Source: Candidatus Iainarchaeum sp. (lineage in GTDB: Archaea; Iainarchaeota; Iainarchaeia; Iainarchaeales; 0-14-0-20-34-12). Taken from it: DNA of 32,000 bases. The stretch covers positions 1 through 32,000 of the forward strand of contig JAUSKK010000036.1 in assembly GCA_030649345.1 (NCBI GenBank), given 5' to 3'. The stretch's first letter is position 1. Each line of letters starts with the position of its first letter. The notes beneath the pieces were generated by a model, which was not told the origin of the DNA, made no database searches, and saw only the letters and a list, made by a program, of their open reading frames with translations. Positions 3,217-24,817 of the stretch are shown in pieces. Position numbers and translations under genes: made by a program.

Positions 3217-3337
3217 GCAGGAGTACCCAAGCGGCCAACGGGGCAGGACTTAAGTTCAAAGAATATTTACAAAGGAGAGAAGCGATAAGTGATCCTGTGG
3301 CTTAGTGCATTCGAAGGTTCGAATCCTTCCTCCTGCA
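3217..3337 (+). tRNA. tRNA-Leu(UAA) with a 37-nt intron at the canonical 37/38 position, no encoded CCA
   Basis: Acceptor stem GCAGGAG/CTCCTGC. Anticodon stem CAGGA(3244-3248)/TCCTG(3293-3297). Loop CTTAAG..A with anticodon TAA at 3251-3253. T arm GAAGG-TTCGAAT-CCTTC (3313-3329). Long variable arm and discriminator A3337. Confidence 0.85.
3255..3291 (+). other. tRNA intron with bulge-helix-bulge-like splice motif
   Basis: A 4-bp helix CTTA(3249-3252)/TAAG(3286-3289) is flanked by 3-nt bulges AGT (3253-3255) and TGA (3290-3292). Removing 37 nt leaves an 84-nt class II tRNA. Confidence 0.7.
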
Positions 3338-10272: not shown

Positions 10273-10426
10273 TAGAAATTTAAGAGGCAAGGCACTATTT
10301 TTAAAGCTTTTGAAAGGCTAGTATTGTATACTGGTTTTATAGTCTACTTGCCGAAGGCAATTCGGAGGTATCGGAACCGAAGGTTCTGATTTAGACAGTA
10401 ACCGATGATAATTTGGAGGTTAGAAT

Positions 10427-11029: not shown

Positions 11030-11296
11030 ATGAATAATTGTTCATTTTGTGGAACTAACATTCAACAAGGTACTGGAATTATTTTTGTAAAAAGAACCGG
11101 AAAACGTTTTGATTTCTGTTCACGAAAATGTGAAAAAAATTTAATGAAATTAAATCGAAATCCAAGAAATTTCAAATGGACCCAAGAATACTGGAAAGAA
11201 AAAGGATTCCAGCAAGAAAAAGCAGGAAAAACTGAAACAGCTAAAAAAGAAGAAACTACAGAAAAGAAAGCTGTGAAACGAAAAAGAAAAAAGTAA
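11030..11296 (+). CDS. rpl24e: 50S ribosomal protein L24e
   Basis: CSFCGTNIQQGTGIIFVKRTGKRFDFCSRKCEKN zinc-ribbon N-terminus and a lysine-rich tail. Confidence 0.9.
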   Translation: MNNCSFCGTNIQQGTGIIFVKRTGKRFDFCSRKCEKNLMKLNRNPRNFKWTQEYWKEKGFQQEKAGKTETAKKEETTEKKAVKRKRKK

Positions 11297-11421
11297 ACAA
11301 TTCTGTGGTGCTGCAAGCACAATAAAACAAAATGTTTTATGTGCATCAAAATCAGCAGATTTTGATTGCACCACGTTCGACCAACCGGAACCCCGGTTGA
11401 AACGAAAGCGAAAAAAGTAAA
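11274..11421 (+). repeat. 24-nt direct repeat of the L24e 3' end (11274-11297 / 11398-11421, 22/24) bracketing a 100-nt multi-hairpin insert
   Basis: Read directly: TGAAACGAAAAAGAAAAAAGTAAA versus TGAAACGAAAGCGAAAAAAGTAAA. The insert stems are given in the findings. Confidence 0.8.
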
Positions 11422-11483
11422 ATAATTTAGTGGCACTGGCGCAGCAATGCAACAGTGTCACATACTATCAATCCGGTGATATT

Positions 11484-11948
11484 TTGGAACGAACGTTAAT
11501 TATTGTAAAACCAGATGCAGTTCAACGAGGCTTGGTCGGAGAAATTGTAAAAAGATTTGAAGACAAAGGCTTGAAAATTGTAGCCATGAAATTAGAAGTA
11601 TTGGCTGAAGAAAAACTCAAAGAACATTATGCGCATCATTCCACAAAACCATTTTTTCCTGAATTGGTCAACTTTATGAAAAGTACACCTAGTGTATTAA
11701 TGGTCTTGGAAGGCACAGAATGTGTTCGAGTGATTCGACAAATGTTGGGTGCCACCAATGGAAGAGATGCAACTTCTGGAACTTTACGCGGAGATTATTC
11801 CATTAGCAATCAAAATAATTTAGTTCATGCCAGTGAAAGTTTGGAAGCAGCAGAAAAAGAAATTGCTCGCTTTTTCAAAAAAGAAGAAGTCATGAATTAC
11901 ACCAAAACTTTAACTGAATGGTTTTATGCCAGTAAAGAAAAAAATTAA
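11484..11948 (+). CDS. ndk: Nucleoside diphosphate kinase, probable TTG start
   Basis: (M)ERTLIIVKPDAVQRGLVGEIVKRFE matches the canonical NDK N-terminus, and NLVHASES contains the active-site His. The track ORF (11430) adds 18 aa that overlap a strong hairpin. GGTGAT lies at 11475-11480. Confidence 0.85.
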   Translation: MERTLIIVKPDAVQRGLVGEIVKRFEDKGLKIVAMKLEVLAEEKLKEHYAHHSTKPFFPELVNFMKSTPSVLMVLEGTECVRVIRQMLGATNGRDATSGTLRGDYSISNQNNLVHASESLEAAEKEIARFFKKEEVMNYTKTLTEWFYASKEKN

Positions 11949-12401: not shown

Positions 12402-12506
12402 TATTGATTGCATACGGGTCAAGGCGCTGAGCCAACCAAAAGAAATATCCATTCAAAGTGCAGGATTACAGAATCCTAAAACTTTGAATAACTGTGTGTG
12501 AAAATT

Positions 12507-14813: not shown

Positions 14814-16037
14814 ATGGCTGGAAAAAAAGTAAAAACAGACAGCAGTGCACAATGCGTGCAAGCTGAAGTGAATATTGGTTTAGCCGGCCATGTAGATGCA
14901 GGAAAAACAACTTTAACTCAAGCATTGAGTGGAAAATGGACAGACACGCATAGTGAAGAATTAAAGCGCGGAATTTCAATACGATTGGGATATGCGGATA
15001 TTGGAATTTATAAATGCAGTAAATGCAAAGAATTTAATTATTCGAATACCAGTGAATGCCCACAGTGTAAATCTCCAGGTATTTTAGACCGCAAAGTTAG
15101 TTTTGTGGATGCGCCAGGGCATGAAACATTAATGACTACTATGTTAAGTGGAGCTGCACTTATGCAAGGCGCTTTGTTGGTAATTGCCGCCAATGAAACT
15201 TGCCCGCAAGCACAAACCATTGAACACTTGAATGCATTAATTATCAGCGGCATCGAGCAAGTCATTGTAGTGCAAAGCAAAGTAGATTTGGTCACCGAAG
15301 AACGAGCATTGGAAAGTCATAAAGAAATTAAAGAATTTTTGAAAGACACCCAATACAAAAACGCGCCCATTGTACCCATTGCAGCACATTTCAAAATCAA
15401 TATTGATATATTATTGGAAGAAATTCAAAAAAGTATTTCTTCGCCGAAATTTGATTCTACAAAACCATTGAAAATGTTTTGTGCACGATCTTTTGATATT
15501 AATAAACCAGGAACGCTTCCTTCAGAATTACATGGAAGTGTTTTAGGCGGAACCATTATTCAAGGAACCATCAAAAAAGGAGACACCATTGAATTAACTC
15601 CTTGGCTGGATGGAAAACAAATTCAAACCAAAGTTATTGAAATTCGAACCAGCGATGGAGTCTTAGAAGAAGCCAAGCCAGGCGGTTTAATTGCAATAGA
15701 AACTTTATTGGATCCAAGTTTAGCACAAAACGATCAGCTTAAAGGCCAAAACATTGGAGCTGTAGGAATATTCTCTGAACCTACCACAGTCTTGAAAATA
15801 GAAATGCATTTTTTGGATCGAGTTGTTGTCAGCAGTGCTAAACGAGTAGTGCAAGGAGATGACTTGGTTTTAACAGTTGGAACTGCAACTTTGTTGGGAA
15901 TTGTTTCCAGCGTAAAAGGAAATACTGTAGTTGTTGCTTTGAAGAAACCAGCCGTAGCTGAAAAAGAACAAAAACTTGCAGTCAGCAAACGAGACCAAAT
16001 GAAATGGAGATTAATTGCTTACGCAATCAATAAATAA
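14814..16037 (+). CDS. eif2g: Translation initiation factor aIF2 gamma subunit
   Basis: GHVDAGKTTL, the zinc-ribbon insert CSKCKE...CPQCKS, DAPGH and SKVD; 407 aa. Confidence 0.9.
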   Translation: MAGKKVKTDSSAQCVQAEVNIGLAGHVDAGKTTLTQALSGKWTDTHSEELKRGISIRLGYADIGIYKCSKCKEFNYSNTSECPQCKSPGILDRKVSFVDAPGHETLMTTMLSGAALMQGALLVIAANETCPQAQTIEHLNALIISGIEQVIVVQSKVDLVTEERALESHKEIKEFLKDTQYKNAPIVPIAAHFKINIDILLEEIQKSISSPKFDSTKPLKMFCARSFDINKPGTLPSELHGSVLGGTIIQGTIKKGDTIELTPWLDGKQIQTKVIEIRTSDGVLEEAKPGGLIAIETLLDPSLAQNDQLKGQNIGAVGIFSEPTTVLKIEMHFLDRVVVSSAKRVVQGDDLVLTVGTATLLGIVSSVKGNTVVVALKKPAVAEKEQKLAVSKRDQMKWRLIAYAINK

Positions 16038-16130
16038 TCAAAACTATCGAGGCAAAGCCGAAGATAGTTTAAAGTACCGCCGGCTTTCCGGCGAAACGGA
16101 GATTAATTGCTTACGCAATCAATAAATAAT
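16001..16130 (+). repeat. 38-nt direct repeat of the aIF2-gamma 3' end (16001-16038 / 16093-16130, 37/38) bracketing a 54-nt two-hairpin insert
   Basis: GAAA[T/C]GGAGATTAATTGCTTACGCAATCAATAAATAAT occurs twice with a 92-nt period. Confidence 0.85.
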
Positions 16131-16610
16131 ATGCAATCAATCAATAAAAAAATGAATATTAAAAATGAAAAAAAATTAAACAGTGCTGCTGAAGTGCAAC
16201 GAAAGCAGCACGTGCTACCAACCCGCACGCGGGTTGCAATTGACACAAATATGTTGTTAAGTGTCAGTCAATTAAAATTGGATATTTTTCAAGAAGTAGT
16301 CAACGAATTTGGAGAACAAAATTCTGAAATTGCAATCCCAGATAGGGTATTAAATGAATTAAAAAAATTGGCAGAAATTGAAAAAAACAAAGATGCCATT
16401 TTAGCTCAAGCCTGGTTAAACCAGAAAAAATTTAAAGTTTTGAAAGCCCAAAAGGCCGATAATGCAGATAAAGCCCTTTTAGAGCTTGCAAAACAAGGGT
16501 TTATCATAGCTACCAATGATAAAGTCTTACGAAAAAGTATAAAAAACGTTAATGGCAAGAGTATTTATATTAGAAAACGAAAAGTACTAGACTTTTCAGA
16601 AACATTCTAA
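16131..16610 (+). CDS. PIN-domain protein (conserved archaeal Fcf1/Utp24-like neighbour of aIF2-gamma and rpoE')
   Basis: VAIDTNMLL...IIATNDKVLRK are acidic PIN motifs. The track start, TTG 16107, lies inside the duplicated aIF2-gamma end. ATG 16131 or 16152 is more plausible. Confidence 0.75.
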   Translation: MQSINKKMNIKNEKKLNSAAEVQRKQHVLPTRTRVAIDTNMLLSVSQLKLDIFQEVVNEFGEQNSEIAIPDRVLNELKKLAEIEKNKDAILAQAWLNQKKFKVLKAQKADNADKALLELAKQGFIIATNDKVLRKSIKNVNGKSIYIRKRKVLDFSETF

Positions 16611-22022: not shown

Positions 22023-22589
22023 ATGACTTTTGAAACAAAAAGCAATGAAAAAGAAGGAATGGAAAGCCCAACACCTGAAAATAACCGTCCAAGCGAAAAT
22101 AATGAAGAATTCAATGCATTAATGACTAAAAAACAGGCTGAGATGCAGGATTATATCAATGATTTAAAGCGGTTACAGGCCGATTTTGAGAACTATCGAA
22201 AGAGGGTAGAACGCGAGCGAACAGAATATGTAAAGCATGCCAATTTTGGATTTTTGCGAGAAATATTGGCTTTATTGGATTCAGTTCAATCAGCAGTTCA
22301 TAAACTGGAAAATGAAAAAGAATTCAATCAAGGAAAAGCCGTGCATGGTTTGCAGTTATTGGAAAAACAATTTAAAGAATTTTTAAAAAAACACGGAGTG
22401 CATGAAATCCAAGCACAAAATTGTAAATGTGATCCTGCAGTACATGAAGTTGTATTGCAAGGAACAGATAATTCAAAACCAGATGAAATGATTTTGGAAG
22501 AATTGCAAAAAGGATATCTATTGCATGACAAAGTTTTACGGTCAGCAAAAGTAAAAGTCAACAAATTAGATAGTAAAATTGAAAAATAA
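22023..22589 (+). CDS. grpE: Nucleotide exchange factor GrpE
   Basis: LKRLQADFENYRKRVERE is the hallmark motif; C-terminal beta domain GYLLHDKVLRSAKVKV. Confidence 0.9.
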   Translation: MTFETKSNEKEGMESPTPENNRPSENNEEFNALMTKKQAEMQDYINDLKRLQADFENYRKRVERERTEYVKHANFGFLREILALLDSVQSAVHKLENEKEFNQGKAVHGLQLLEKQFKEFLKKHGVHEIQAQNCKCDPAVHEVVLQGTDNSKPDEMILEELQKGYLLHDKVLRSAKVKVNKLDSKIEK

Positions 22590-22636
22590 TTATAAAATTT
22601 GAAAAATAAAAGTATGATTTTTGAAGGTGGTATGAA

Positions 22637-24523
22637 ATGAGTAAAGTAATTGGAATCGATTTAGGAACCAGTAATTCAGCAGCTGCAGTCTTGGAAGCAG
22701 GAAAACCAAAAATTATTCCAAGCGCAGAAGGAACTTCTTTATACGGAAAAGCATTTCCAAGTGTTGTGGCATTCACAAAAGATGACCAAGTTTTGGTGGG
22801 TGAACCGGCACGCAGACAAGCTGTCAGTAATCCAGATAAAACAATTATGGCAGCCAAGCGAAAAATGGGAACTACTTTCAAATACAAGATTGGCTCGAAA
22901 GAATTTACGCCTCAACAAATTAGTGCATTTATTTTACAGAAAATTAAAAAAGACGCAGAAGAATTTTTAGGCGAAAAAGTAGAAAAAGCTGTAATCACTG
23001 TGCCAGCTTATTTTGATGACAATCAAAGACAAGCAACCAAAGATGCAGGAGAAATTGCAGGCTTGGAAGTTATTCGAATTATTAATGAACCCACAGCTGC
23101 TGCTTTAGCCTATGGCTTAGATAAAAGCAATCAAGACATGAAAATTTTAGTATTCGATTTCGGCGGCGGAACATTGGATGTAACTGTAATGGAATTAGGC
23201 CATGGAGTCTTTGAAGTCAAATCAACCAGCGGAGACACTCAATTGGGCGGCACAGACATGGATAAAATTTTAGTGGATTATTTGGTGGCAGAATTCAAAA
23301 AAGAACAAGCTGTTGATTTAAGCAAAGACAGTGTAGCTATGCAGAGATTACGAGAAGCTGCAGAAAAAGCCAAAATTGAATTAAGTACAGTTTTGGATAC
23401 ACAAATTAATTTACCGTACATTACAGCTACTCCGGAAGGCCCGAAACATTTGGCCCTGAGTTTAACAAGATCAAAATTAGAACAATTGGTCGAGCCCTTA
23501 ATTCATAGATGCGAAAAACCAGTCCAGCAAGCTTTGGCGGATGCCAAAGTATCCCCGGGAGATGTAGCTAAAATTATTTTAGTCGGCGGACCAACCCGAA
23601 TGCCTGCAGTACAAAAGTTTGTGGAAAAAATTACAGGAGCCAAACCAGAACGAGGCATTGACCCAATGGAATGTGTAGCTATGGGTGCAGCCATTCAAGC
23701 CGGAGTTTTAGCTGGAGAAGTTAAAGATGTTTTATTATTGGACGTAACACCCCTAAGTTTAGGAATTGAAACCTTGGGTGGAGTGTTTACTCATTTAATT
23801 GAACGCAATACAACCATTCCAACCAAAAAAACTCAAATATTTAGCACAGCTGCAGACAACCAAAATGCAGTAGATATTCATATCCTGCAAGGAGAAAGAC
23901 CTATGGCAGTAGACAACAAAAGTTTGGGCAGATTTATTTTAGATGGAATTCCTCCAGCACCTCGCGGTGTTCCACAAGTTGAAGTCATGTACGATATTGA
24001 TGCCAACGGAATTTTGGATGTTAAAGCCAAAGATTTAGGCACAGGCAAAGAAAAAAGCATCAAAATTGTTTCTCCGCAAAAATTGGATAAAGAAGAAATT
24101 GAGCGAATGAAGCAGGAAGCGGAAAAGTTTGCAGAAGCGGATCAAAAGAAAAAAGAAGAGATTGAAACTTTGAATATGGCAGACAACACAGTTTATGGGA
24201 CTGAAAAGGTGTTGAAAGAATTGAGCGGGAAAATTTCTGCAGAACAAGAAACAGAAATTAAAGAAAAAAATGAAACATTAAGAAAATTAGTAAACGAGCC
24301 AACCAAAGATGTTGCAAAAATTAAAACAGCTTTAGATGACTTGAATGCATTCGTGCAAAAAATCAGTACAGAAATGTATCAAAAAGCCGGAGAACAATAC
24401 CAGCAACAAAATCAAGGAGAACAAGGAAATCCCGGACAAGAAGAAGAACACAAGCACAAAAAGAAAAACAAAGACGGAAAAGTGGTTGACGCGGAGTTTA
24501 AGGAAGACGAAAGCAAACAATAG
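22637..24523 (+). CDS. dnaK: Chaperone DnaK (Hsp70)
   Basis: [23 protein letters not shown] and [10 protein letters not shown]; 628 aa. Confidence 0.95.
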
Positions 24524-24659
24524 TGCTGAACGCAGTGAAGCACTACGACCTACCAACCGCGCGATTAAAACGCAGCGTTTTAATGCGCATTTAAACAAAA
24601 GTTTAAATCGCGTCCGCGGTTGACGCGGAGTTTAAGGAAGACGAGAGCAAACAATAGTG
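24484..24659 (+). repeat. 42-nt direct repeat of the dnaK 3' end (24484-24525 / 24618-24659, 41/42) bracketing a 92-nt GC-rich multi-hairpin insert
   Basis: GGTTGACGCGGAGTTTAAGGAAGACGA[A/G]AGCAAACAATAGTG occurs twice with a 134-nt period. Confidence 0.9.
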
Positions 24660-24688: not shown

Positions 24689-24817
24689 ATGAATCCTGAA
24701 GTGAAAGCAAAAAAAGTTGAACCTGTTTTGAAGAATCAACCGAAAGCAGAAGATGTAGTTATTCTTGGCCAAGCAAAAAAATCAAGAGATTACTTGAATA
24801 ACTTTATGGCAGCATAA
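24689..24817 (+). CDS. Hypothetical 42-aa protein between dnaK and dnaJ
   Basis: ATG preceded by GGAG 9 nt upstream. Sequence MNPEVKAKKVEPVLKNQPKAEDVVILGQAKKSRDYLNNFMAA, with no recognisable motif. Confidence 0.3.
   Translation: MNPEVKAKKVEPVLKNQPKAEDVVILGQAKKSRDYLNNFMAA

Follow-up and report, generated by a model that had tools for sequence, protein, structure and literature searches.

Duplicated L24e gene end in a DPANN archaeon as a likely target-site duplication around a small structured insertion element

In the stretch of archaeal DNA analysed here, the first 32,000 nucleotides of contig JAUSKK010000036.1 (the 32-kb window), the end of the gene for ribosomal protein L24e is present a second time behind a 100-nt folded insert, which we call element A. 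In this DPANN archaeon, the second copy is likely to be a young target-site duplication around one of a family of structured insertion elements. The evidence comes from the empty site in relatives, from the same anatomy behind the genes for aIF2-gamma and DnaK, and from a core common to the elements.

Duplication of the L24e gene end

An earlier note on this DNA had reported that the 3' end of L24e is duplicated 124 nt downstream, and this is what we see. The sequence TGAAACGAAAAAGAAAAAAGTAAA at 11274-11297, which comprises the end of L24e and its stop codon, is repeated at 11398-11421 with 22 of 24 matches, and the two differences between the copies are adjacent (AA at 11284-11285, GC at 11408-11409). 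The locus is composed as follows, L083 and L084 being two relatives described below.

11030..11296, + strand, L24e gene, an intact open reading frame (ORF) of 88 aa with the C-terminus ...AVKRKRKK, then TAA
11274..11297, + strand, direct repeat copy 1, coding: the last 7 codons, the stop and 1 further nt
11298..11397, + strand, inserted element A, 100 nt, with the leader CAATTCT and stems P1 and P2; absent from L083 and L084
11398..11421, + strand, direct repeat copy 2, a non-coding footprint that shares its initial TG (2 nt) with the end of stem P2
11422..11474, + strand, element B, a second hairpin insert, directly 3' of the GTAAA of copy 2 and without a long repeat
11475..11948, + strand, GGTGA ribosome-binding site (11475-11479) and NDK gene, start TTG 11484

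Pairs of 24-mers lying 30-400 nt apart with at least 22 of 24 matches occur three times in the whole window, and all three are gene-end repeats (L24e, aIF2-gamma, DnaK), while no comparable pair arose in 100 shuffles that kept the local composition. When the L24e tail was compared with the downstream sequence, it reached a score of 38, against a shuffle mean of 18.4, and none of 300 shuffles attained this value; these tests indicate that the L24e repeat did not arise by chance. Logan contigs of run SRR13727527 span both junctions of the insert. One of them (L001) holds copy 1 and then the insert up to ...ccccggttgaa, and another (L002) begins within the insert and continues via copy 2 into NDK; the breaks occur only where a 31-mer graph has to break. 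The repeat and the insert are therefore no assembly artefact.

The closest relative found, L083 (run SRR14366766), has an NDK protein 80% identical to that of the window. The 3' part of L24e and the 5' part of NDK align closely between the two, with a single 173-nt gap that corresponds to one repeat copy, element A and element B. The junction in L083 reads ...aaaaaagtaaaCCTTAGGTGAAATTTTGgaacg, which can also be written ...AAAAAAGTAAAC-CTTAGGTGAAATTTTGGAACG, and the stop there is followed by an L24e-NDK spacer of ~15 nt, with the GGTGA ribosome-binding site included, and then by the TTG start. In this empty-site test, made for the L24e site, L083 thus has a single L24e-end copy directly followed by the NDK ribosome-binding site, and the more distant L084 (NDK 64% identical) agrees, with 5 nt between L24e and NDK. 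The C-terminus of L24e is conserved (...VKKKRKK in L083, ...VKRKRKK in the window), so the repeated sequence was the target and was not delivered by the insert. Compared with L083, there are two gains in the window: a 124-nt unit, made up of a repeat copy and the 100-nt element A, and element B. Given the short spacer in the closest relative, the 124-nt unit is an insertion with target-site duplication, and as far as these alignments reach, we count both the insertion and the duplication at L24e as established. An empty-site or precisely excised allele would read ...AAAAGTAAA joined to ATAATTTAG or CCGGTGA.

Structure of the inserts at L24e

The fold that the earlier note had drawn for the 100-nt insert was reproduced by ViennaRNA as a three-way junction closed by P1, followed by a 7-nt linker and P2. 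At -42.4 kcal/mol, it is more stable than shuffles (-20.9 kcal/mol; z = -6.67). The GC-rich stem at 11382-11399 does run into copy 2, as had been noted, by 2 nt.

11305..11311 / 11368..11374, + strand, P1 of element A, GTGGTGC/GCACCAC (in ViennaRNA 11304/5-11311 with 11368-11374/5)
11317..11344 and 11345..11366, + strand, inner AT-rich hairpins of element A, enclosed by P1
11375..11381, + strand, linker of element A, GTTCGAC
11382..11399, + strand, GC hairpin P2 of element A, CAACCGG-aacc-CCGGTTG, last 2 nt inside copy 2
11430..11438 / 11453..11461, + strand, stem of element B, GTGGCACTG/CAGTGTCAC, fold z = -4.65

Element B is a GTGG...CAC hairpin that is absent from L083, and its tail ATACTATCAATCC is similar to the linker of the family described below. 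The GTG at 11430, from which the ORF list and the Logan gene calls start NDK (172 aa), falls within this element. We place the start at TTG 11484 (154 aa) on the basis of the NCBI protein P0001, which has 154 aa and is 100% identical, and of the motif GGTGA-N6-TTG, which is conserved in L083. As this case illustrates, inserted elements are able to mislead gene callers.

The same anatomy at other gene ends

Gene-end repeats around structured inserts are also found behind aIF2-gamma and DnaK, and a further element, E3, lies upstream of the PIN gene.

16001..16130, + strand, aIF2-gamma end: 38-nt repeat 16001-16038 / 16093-16130 (37/38), insert E4 of 54 nt (16039-16092)
16041..16070 and 16078..16093, + strand, structure of E4: a hairpin, and the GC hairpin CGCCGG-cttt-CCGGCG with TAC before it
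16183..16236, + strand, element E3, 54 nt, the minimal family member, upstream of the PIN gene, without a clear long repeat: P1 GTGCTGCT/AGCAGCAC, linker GTGCTAC, P2 CAACCCG-cacg-CGGGTTG
24484..24659, + strand, DnaK end: 42-nt repeat 24484-24525 / 24618-24659 (41/42), insert E2 of 92 nt (24526-24617)
24523..24543 and 24554..24561 / 24615..24622, + strand, parts of E2: P1 GTGCT/AGCAC, linker TACGACCTAC, then P2 CAACCGCG/CGCGGTTG

All three inserts with flanking repeats begin 1-2 nt past the stop codon of the gene before them. The element-bearing spacers at aIF2-gamma and DnaK have a GC content of 46-48%, versus 19-31% in most other spacers, and the z-scores of the element folds range from -2.9 to -6.7. 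Two AT-rich hairpins are held by the P2 loop of E2, and two by the P1 loop of element A.

Several observations around these sites stand on their own. The sequence after copy 2 of aIF2-gamma (16131-16182, + strand), ATGCAATCAATCAATAAAAAAATG, resembles at ~16133-16148 a degenerate third copy of the final ~17 nt of aIF2-gamma (GCAATCAATAAATAAT); the order would then be third copy, A-rich stretch and E3, and an older insertion at this site may have left the third copy as its decayed footprint. The end of the GrpE gene, TTGAAAAATAA with its stop (22579), is repeated exactly 20 nt downstream (22599), just 5' of the dnaK ribosome-binding site (range 22579-22609, + strand), and there is no structured insert between these copies. 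The spacer between dUTPase and aIF5B (12402-12497, + strand) has 96 nt, versus ~10 nt in L083 and L084, and contains GGCGCTGAGCCAACC and the hairpin TTCAAAGT..ACTTTGAA without a significant flanking repeat; it may be another, older insert. Between dnaK copy 2 and dnaJ lies a small ORF of ~43 codons (MNPEVKAKKVEPVLKNQ..., 24689-24817, + strand) with GGAG ~10 nt before its ATG, and its extension in the ORF list to TTG 24620, inside dnaK copy 2, is probably an artefact of the duplication.

A small family of elements

The elements A, E2 and E3 resemble each other beyond their position. The comparison of A with E3 scores 25 and that of E2 with E3 scores 23, each reached in none of 500 shuffles, and E3 finds A within the window with E = 5e-4. 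The three share the gapless core GCA-S-Y-ACG-W-N-C-K-ACCAACC-SS, which extends over the 3' arm of P1 (a stem that opens with GTG and closes with CAC), a single-stranded linker of the pattern ..ACG..C.ACCAACC and the 5' arm of the GC-rich P2, whose 3' arm ends with GGTTG. When the stems are read straight from the sequences, pairing is kept while the sequence is changed, both in P1 (GTGGTGC/GCACCAC in A, GTGCTGCT/AGCAGCAC in E3, GTGCT/AGCAC in E2) and in P2 (CAACCGG/CCGGTTG in A, CAACCCG/CGGGTTG in E3, CAACCGCG/CGCGGTTG in E2). Hairpins of the type CAACC-stem-GGTTG occur three times in the 32-kb window, each time on the + strand, intergenic and with AC before the hairpin, and no equivalents were present in ~1.2 Mb of other archaeal loci. 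Seven GC-rich perfect hairpins exist in the window; four of them are accounted for by P2 of A, of E3 and of E4 and by a GC hairpin at the junction of E2 with copy 2, and a fifth is an alternative pairing at that same junction.

Judged by these similarities, A, E2 and E3 form a small dispersed family that is apparently undescribed. E4 and B are its probable relatives, linked to it through their architecture and the (T)AC-C prefix only; taken alone, the similarity of B to E3 is not significant (p = 0.18).

The searches for further copies gave nothing beyond chance. The Rfam 15 scan of the window at gathering score had no hits, and permissive scans gave chance-level matches only (E > 0.9). ARAGORN found no tRNA match for the inserts. 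The core pattern CAACC-N4-30-GGTTGGTMGNWCGTRSTGC had three matches in JGI metagenomes, all in unrelated sequence without the hairpin and in a number equal to the chance expectation, and none in viral contigs; in blastn searches, A had no match among phages and E2 had none among plasmids.

A side observation concerns the AT-rich hairpin pairs, which are alike in A (11312-11367) and E2 (24562-24613) with their order reversed (p = 0.02), for example ATAAAAC..GTTTTAT versus TTAAAAC..GTTTTAA and ATTTAAAC..GTTTAAAT. Such pairs could constitute a module of their own, nested in hairpin loops.

Coding status of the second copy

Both differences at L24e are synonymous (aaa to aag, aga to cga), as is the one at dnaK (GAA to GAG), and the aIF2-gamma difference is non-synonymous (TGG to CGG). 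With the frames checked, the earlier count of three synonymous substitutions out of four in the three strong repeats stands. It had led to the suggestion that copy 2 is, or recently was, translated, or is kept identical by gene conversion. We regard it as extremely improbable that copy 2 functions as coding sequence, now or recently, or is held by gene conversion or selection. The chance synonymous share of single substitutions in these repeats is 17-22%, and three silent changes out of four would then have a chance of ~0.025 if the changes were independent and unconstrained (a hand calculation from 0.17-0.22), which is the point in favour of a functional copy. However, the two L24e changes are adjacent, so that independence is unsafe, and translation fails on the context: copy 2 lies out of frame behind the L24e stop and has no usable start. 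The start-to-start spacings of the copies are 124, 92 and 134 nt for L24e, aIF2-gamma and dnaK, none of them a multiple of three. The sole start codon in the frame of the L24e copy 2 is the TTG at 11397, which gives a 7-codon micro-ORF, and the copy-2 frames of aIF2-gamma and dnaK contain no start codon.

The relative L083 serves as an outgroup here, and at the two differing positions it reads A-C, compared with A-A in copy 1 and G-C in copy 2. The simplest history that this suggests is one substitution per copy. The coding copy, in which a change had to be silent to persist, would have gone from cga to aga, and copy 2 from aaa to aag, a roughly 1-in-5 event. If half of the changes fell in the constrained copy, ~36% would be expected to be synonymous, and three out of four would then have p about 0.14 by our own calculation. 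In view of this history and of selection on copy 1, the silent share is unremarkable and needs no special cause. The three sites together have four differences in 104 nt, which indicates that the insertions are young and gives no sign of selection on copy 2. Gene conversion is likewise not supported, because a young insertion accounts for the similarity. Copy 2 is a non-coding target-duplication footprint and not a second coding end, and it is "recently coding" solely as the descendant of one duplicated coding gene end.

Proposed mode of insertion

We propose that, in this lineage, short, non-coding and strongly folded elements have been copied into very short spacers between co-oriented genes. 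The insertion duplicated 24-42 nt of the target, comprising the last codons and the stop; copy 1 still ends the gene, and copy 2 is left downstream of the insert as the target-site duplication. At the dnaK junction, the family-terminal GGTTG is identical with the first 5 nt of the repeat (target ...AAAGT-GGTTGACGCGG), and the first GTG of P1 is identical with the last 3 nt of the repeat. The overlap at the 3' junction is TG at L24e and G at aIF2-gamma. We calculate the chance of a five-base overlap as ~0.001 per junction. The long and variable duplications, the lack of terminal inverted repeats and the shared junction bases make a duplicative, microhomology-joined process the most likely one, in which the element would be copied from another element copy and rejoined by microhomology. 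Such a process could be a replication template switch, whereby a nascent strand in a stop-codon context would copy an element behind another stop and re-anneal 24-42 nt upstream; other candidates would be a target-primed copying reaction or a transposase making long, variable staggered cuts.

The location of the elements just 3' of stop codons may reflect the mechanism, i.e., microhomology with stop-codon contexts, and it may equally reflect selection, as other insertions would break genes given spacers of 5-15 nt. The elements are co-directional with the gene strings and would be part of the operon mRNA, forming a stable intercistronic structure there. By analogy with bacterial REP elements, a role as intercistronic stabiliser or processing site is possible. 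A more far-reaching proposal, which we put forward tentatively and hold to be rather doubtful as a whole, is that the family represents an undescribed non-autonomous element of DPANN archaea that lacks inverted repeats and a transposase of its own, spreads behind stops by microhomology-guided duplication, perhaps through template switching between gene ends or target-primed copying of the transcribed element, and also delivers a structured RNA module into operon mRNAs.

Alternative explanations

A non-autonomous DNA transposon of the classical type, be it a MITE or a palindrome derived from REP or IS200/IS605 and mobilised in trans by a transposase encoded elsewhere in the genome, would account for elements that are small, non-coding, structured, intergenic, multi-copy and in one orientation; the hairpins at both ends are reminiscent of IS200/IS605 ends, and the P1 start GTGG/GTGC is somewhat like a REP head. 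We nevertheless find it improbable, as the ends CA(A).../...GGTTG form no terminal inverted repeats, and duplications of 24, 38 and 42 nt are neither short nor fixed, whereas IS200/IS605 and REP elements give no target duplication at all. A transposase of the IS1634/IS1549 type would fit the duplications but not the absent inverted repeats. A plain tandem duplication of the gene end and spacer by slippage or unequal recombination, followed by divergence and involving no mobile element, finds some points in its favour in the GTGG-initial hairpin that follows each L24e copy within 7-8 nt, in the faint likeness of AATTCTGTGGTGCTG to AATTTAGTGGCACTG and of CAACCGG to CAATCCGG, and in the small gene-end repeats elsewhere (the GrpE end, the partial third copy of the aIF2-gamma tail). 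However, at none of the three sites is the similarity of the insert to the sequence past copy 2 above shuffle level (p = 0.50, 0.23 and 1.0), which speaks decisively against a simple tandem duplication. Uniform divergence cannot leave repeats with 92-98% identity beside a remainder without significant similarity, and in-situ copying cannot yield inserts that are alike across three unrelated loci; this makes the explanation very unlikely.

The 3' end of a housekeeping gene is a frequent target of integrative elements, which bring a replacement gene end with them. The repeats could therefore be attL/attR scars of site-specific integrases, with an internal deletion that left 54-100 nt. Repeats of 24-42 nt that include the stop are typical of att cores at gene 3' ends (tRNA examples in PMC2853133), and silent differences between copies are typical of element-borne replacement gene ends. 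Against this, three different repeats within 13 kb presuppose three integrase specificities as well as three independent, almost complete deletions, each leaving a related structured remnant; the repeat sequences are unrelated, the inserts have no ORF, no integrase or other element genes were found, and there was no phage, plasmid or viral match. We hold this origin to be highly unlikely.

The preferred reading, a target-site duplication around a mobile structured element, has weak points of its own. No transposase, integrase or reverse transcriptase was seen in the window, so the mobilising enzyme or process is pure inference. There are three clear family members, or five with E4 and B, whose sequence similarity to the family is not significant, and they come from a single 34-kb contig of a single metagenome-assembled genome, so that copy number, ends and consensus are poorly defined. 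The microhomology argument leans mainly on one junction, GGTTG at dnaK. Empty sites were confirmed at L24e alone; for the other sites, no relatives exceeded 45% identity (PIN, at the aIF2-gamma/PIN site) or ~60-62% (C-terminus of DnaK). With few taxa compared, loss of the element in the relatives by repeat-mediated deletion would be possible, and gain is more parsimonious in view of two relatives with the empty site.

Further identities were considered for the inserts and dropped. Several related non-coding copies (A, E2, E3) are present in the 32 kb examined, as is expected of a MITE, but the ends CAATTCT.../...CCGGTTG (A), GTGCTG.../...GGGTTG (E3) and .../...CGCGGTTG (E2) are not inverted termini, and the target duplications of 24, 38 and 42 nt contrast with the fixed 2-14 bp required. 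An element derived from REP/REPIN or IS200/IS605 was rejected on the target duplications of 24-42 nt that flank three copies; no Y1 (RAYT/TnpA) transposase gene was found on the 34-kb contig. In the predicted folds, the insert pairs with itself and not across the copies, and the gene is complete with its stop in copy 1, which excludes a bulge-helix-bulge intron. No boxes of C/D-box or H/ACA small RNA (sRNA) were found, the sole match being a chance-level H/ACA (E = 0.92). The P1 loops of E2 and E3 would allow tandem G.A pairs, but the 3-nt bulge of a K-turn is absent there. The R''/R' consensus of an integron attC does not occur. Template and variable repeats of a diversity-generating retroelement (DGR) were dismissed on the absent reverse transcriptase, the shortness of the repeats and the wrong direction of A-mutation, and ectopic CRISPR spacer integration on the wrong insert sizes and structure and the variable repeat lengths. 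A tRNA-like structure was also considered and dropped.

Genomic setting

The window is part of an AT-rich archaeal chromosome (35% GC), and its host is a DPANN archaeon with the label Candidatus Diapherotrites (Iainarchaeota-like). It carries genes for L7Ae, S28e, L24e, NDK, dUTPase, aIF5B, S6e, aIF2-gamma, a PIN protein (locus tag Q7S92_04480 in the NCBI record), RpoE, S24e, Sua5, Kae1, GrpE-DnaK-DnaJ and ValRS; the Pfam family Ribosomal_L24e is annotated on the identical Logan gene. The nearest GTDB species representatives, which are Iainarchaeota-like DPANN, share just 55-59% identity in Kae1, from which it follows that the lineage is sparsely sampled. The distant relatives from the Kae1 scan had neither comparable gene-end repeats nor CAACC..GGTTG elements.

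Two structured RNA features of the window lie apart from the elements. The 154-nt spacer upstream of L7Ae (10273-10426, + strand) contains several hairpins and, a short distance ahead of the start codon, a CCGATGATAA motif; a permissive Rfam scan gave no match for this spacer. It is reminiscent of the kink-turn leaders by which archaeal L7Ae autoregulates its own mRNA. At 3217-3337 (+ strand) lies a tRNA-Leu (anticodon UAA) whose anticodon loop holds a 40-nt intron and whose variable arm is long; it reached 42.1 bits in a focused Rfam scan (gathering score 29) and had been missed by ARAGORN and by the whole-window Rfam scan.

Significance

In compact archaeal genomes, a short gene end repeated behind a stop codon can be the footprint of an insertion and is not necessarily an alternative C-terminus, a recoding signal or an assembly error. 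Such repeats break short-read assemblies, and Logan contigs end exactly at them, as L088 does at the aIF2-gamma repeat. What is unusual here is the combination of a family of 54-100-nt hairpin elements with long, variable and microhomology-bounded duplications in a reduced DPANN genome with no transposase nearby, and the family could give access to the origin of long-duplication insertions. Where relatives have spacers of 5-15 nt between ribosomal-protein and chaperone genes, this genome carries very stable inserted RNA structures, and mRNA processing or stability could change as a result.

Comparison with known systems

The SINE-like target-primed retroposition of eukaryotes shares with our elements the variable duplications, the lack of inverted repeats, the microhomology of the element's 3' end with the downstream duplication and the variable 5' ends. 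It differs in that no A-tail is present here and no reverse transcriptase was seen in 34 kb; the parallel is an analogy only. To our knowledge, target-primed retroposition has never been shown for non-intron elements in archaea. The att duplications that integrases of prophages and integrative elements leave at the 3' ends of housekeeping genes are likewise direct repeats of 20-50 nt that hold the last codons and the stop, leave the gene intact and have a silently different displaced copy, but they need an integrase-bearing element with one specificity, whereas here three repeats flank inserts of 54-100 nt.

REP, BIME and REPIN sequences and other small structured repeats of bacteria are also short, GC-rich hairpins dispersed in intergenic spacers, typically behind stops in operons, co-transcribed and with a conserved short motif beside the palindrome (PMC3184786, PMC2817692). 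REPs give no target duplication and are mobilised by RAYT (Y1) transposases. The geometry of the motif is another in our archaeal elements, where CTAC/CGAC precedes the palindrome on its 5' side in the sense strand. The mobility described for C/D sRNAs of Pyrobaculum involves MITE-like sRNA copies and nothing resembling gene-end duplications (PMC6009581).

Unusually long and variable target duplications are known from IS1549 and IS1634 (8-514 bp; PMC2266710), for which no mechanistic model was reported (PMC2266710), and from IS1630 (19-26 bp; PMC2853133), and the IS1634 family is diverse in archaea (PMC2266710, PMC2853133). These are complete insertion sequences that encode a transposase and end in inverted repeats, neither of which was seen here. 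The restriction-modification units among the long-duplication insertions, for which insertion with 46-bp duplications overlapping gene 3' ends has been described (PMC2853133), share more with our case: their direct repeats of tens of bp are single at the empty site of a related genome and variable in length, they may overlap the 3' end of a neighbouring gene, and the insert has neither inverted repeats nor a mobility gene. Theirs are kilobase-sized gene units in bacteria, mostly in naturally competent species (PMC2853133), whereas the inserts here are mutually related, non-coding hairpin elements of 54-100 nt in an archaeal host.

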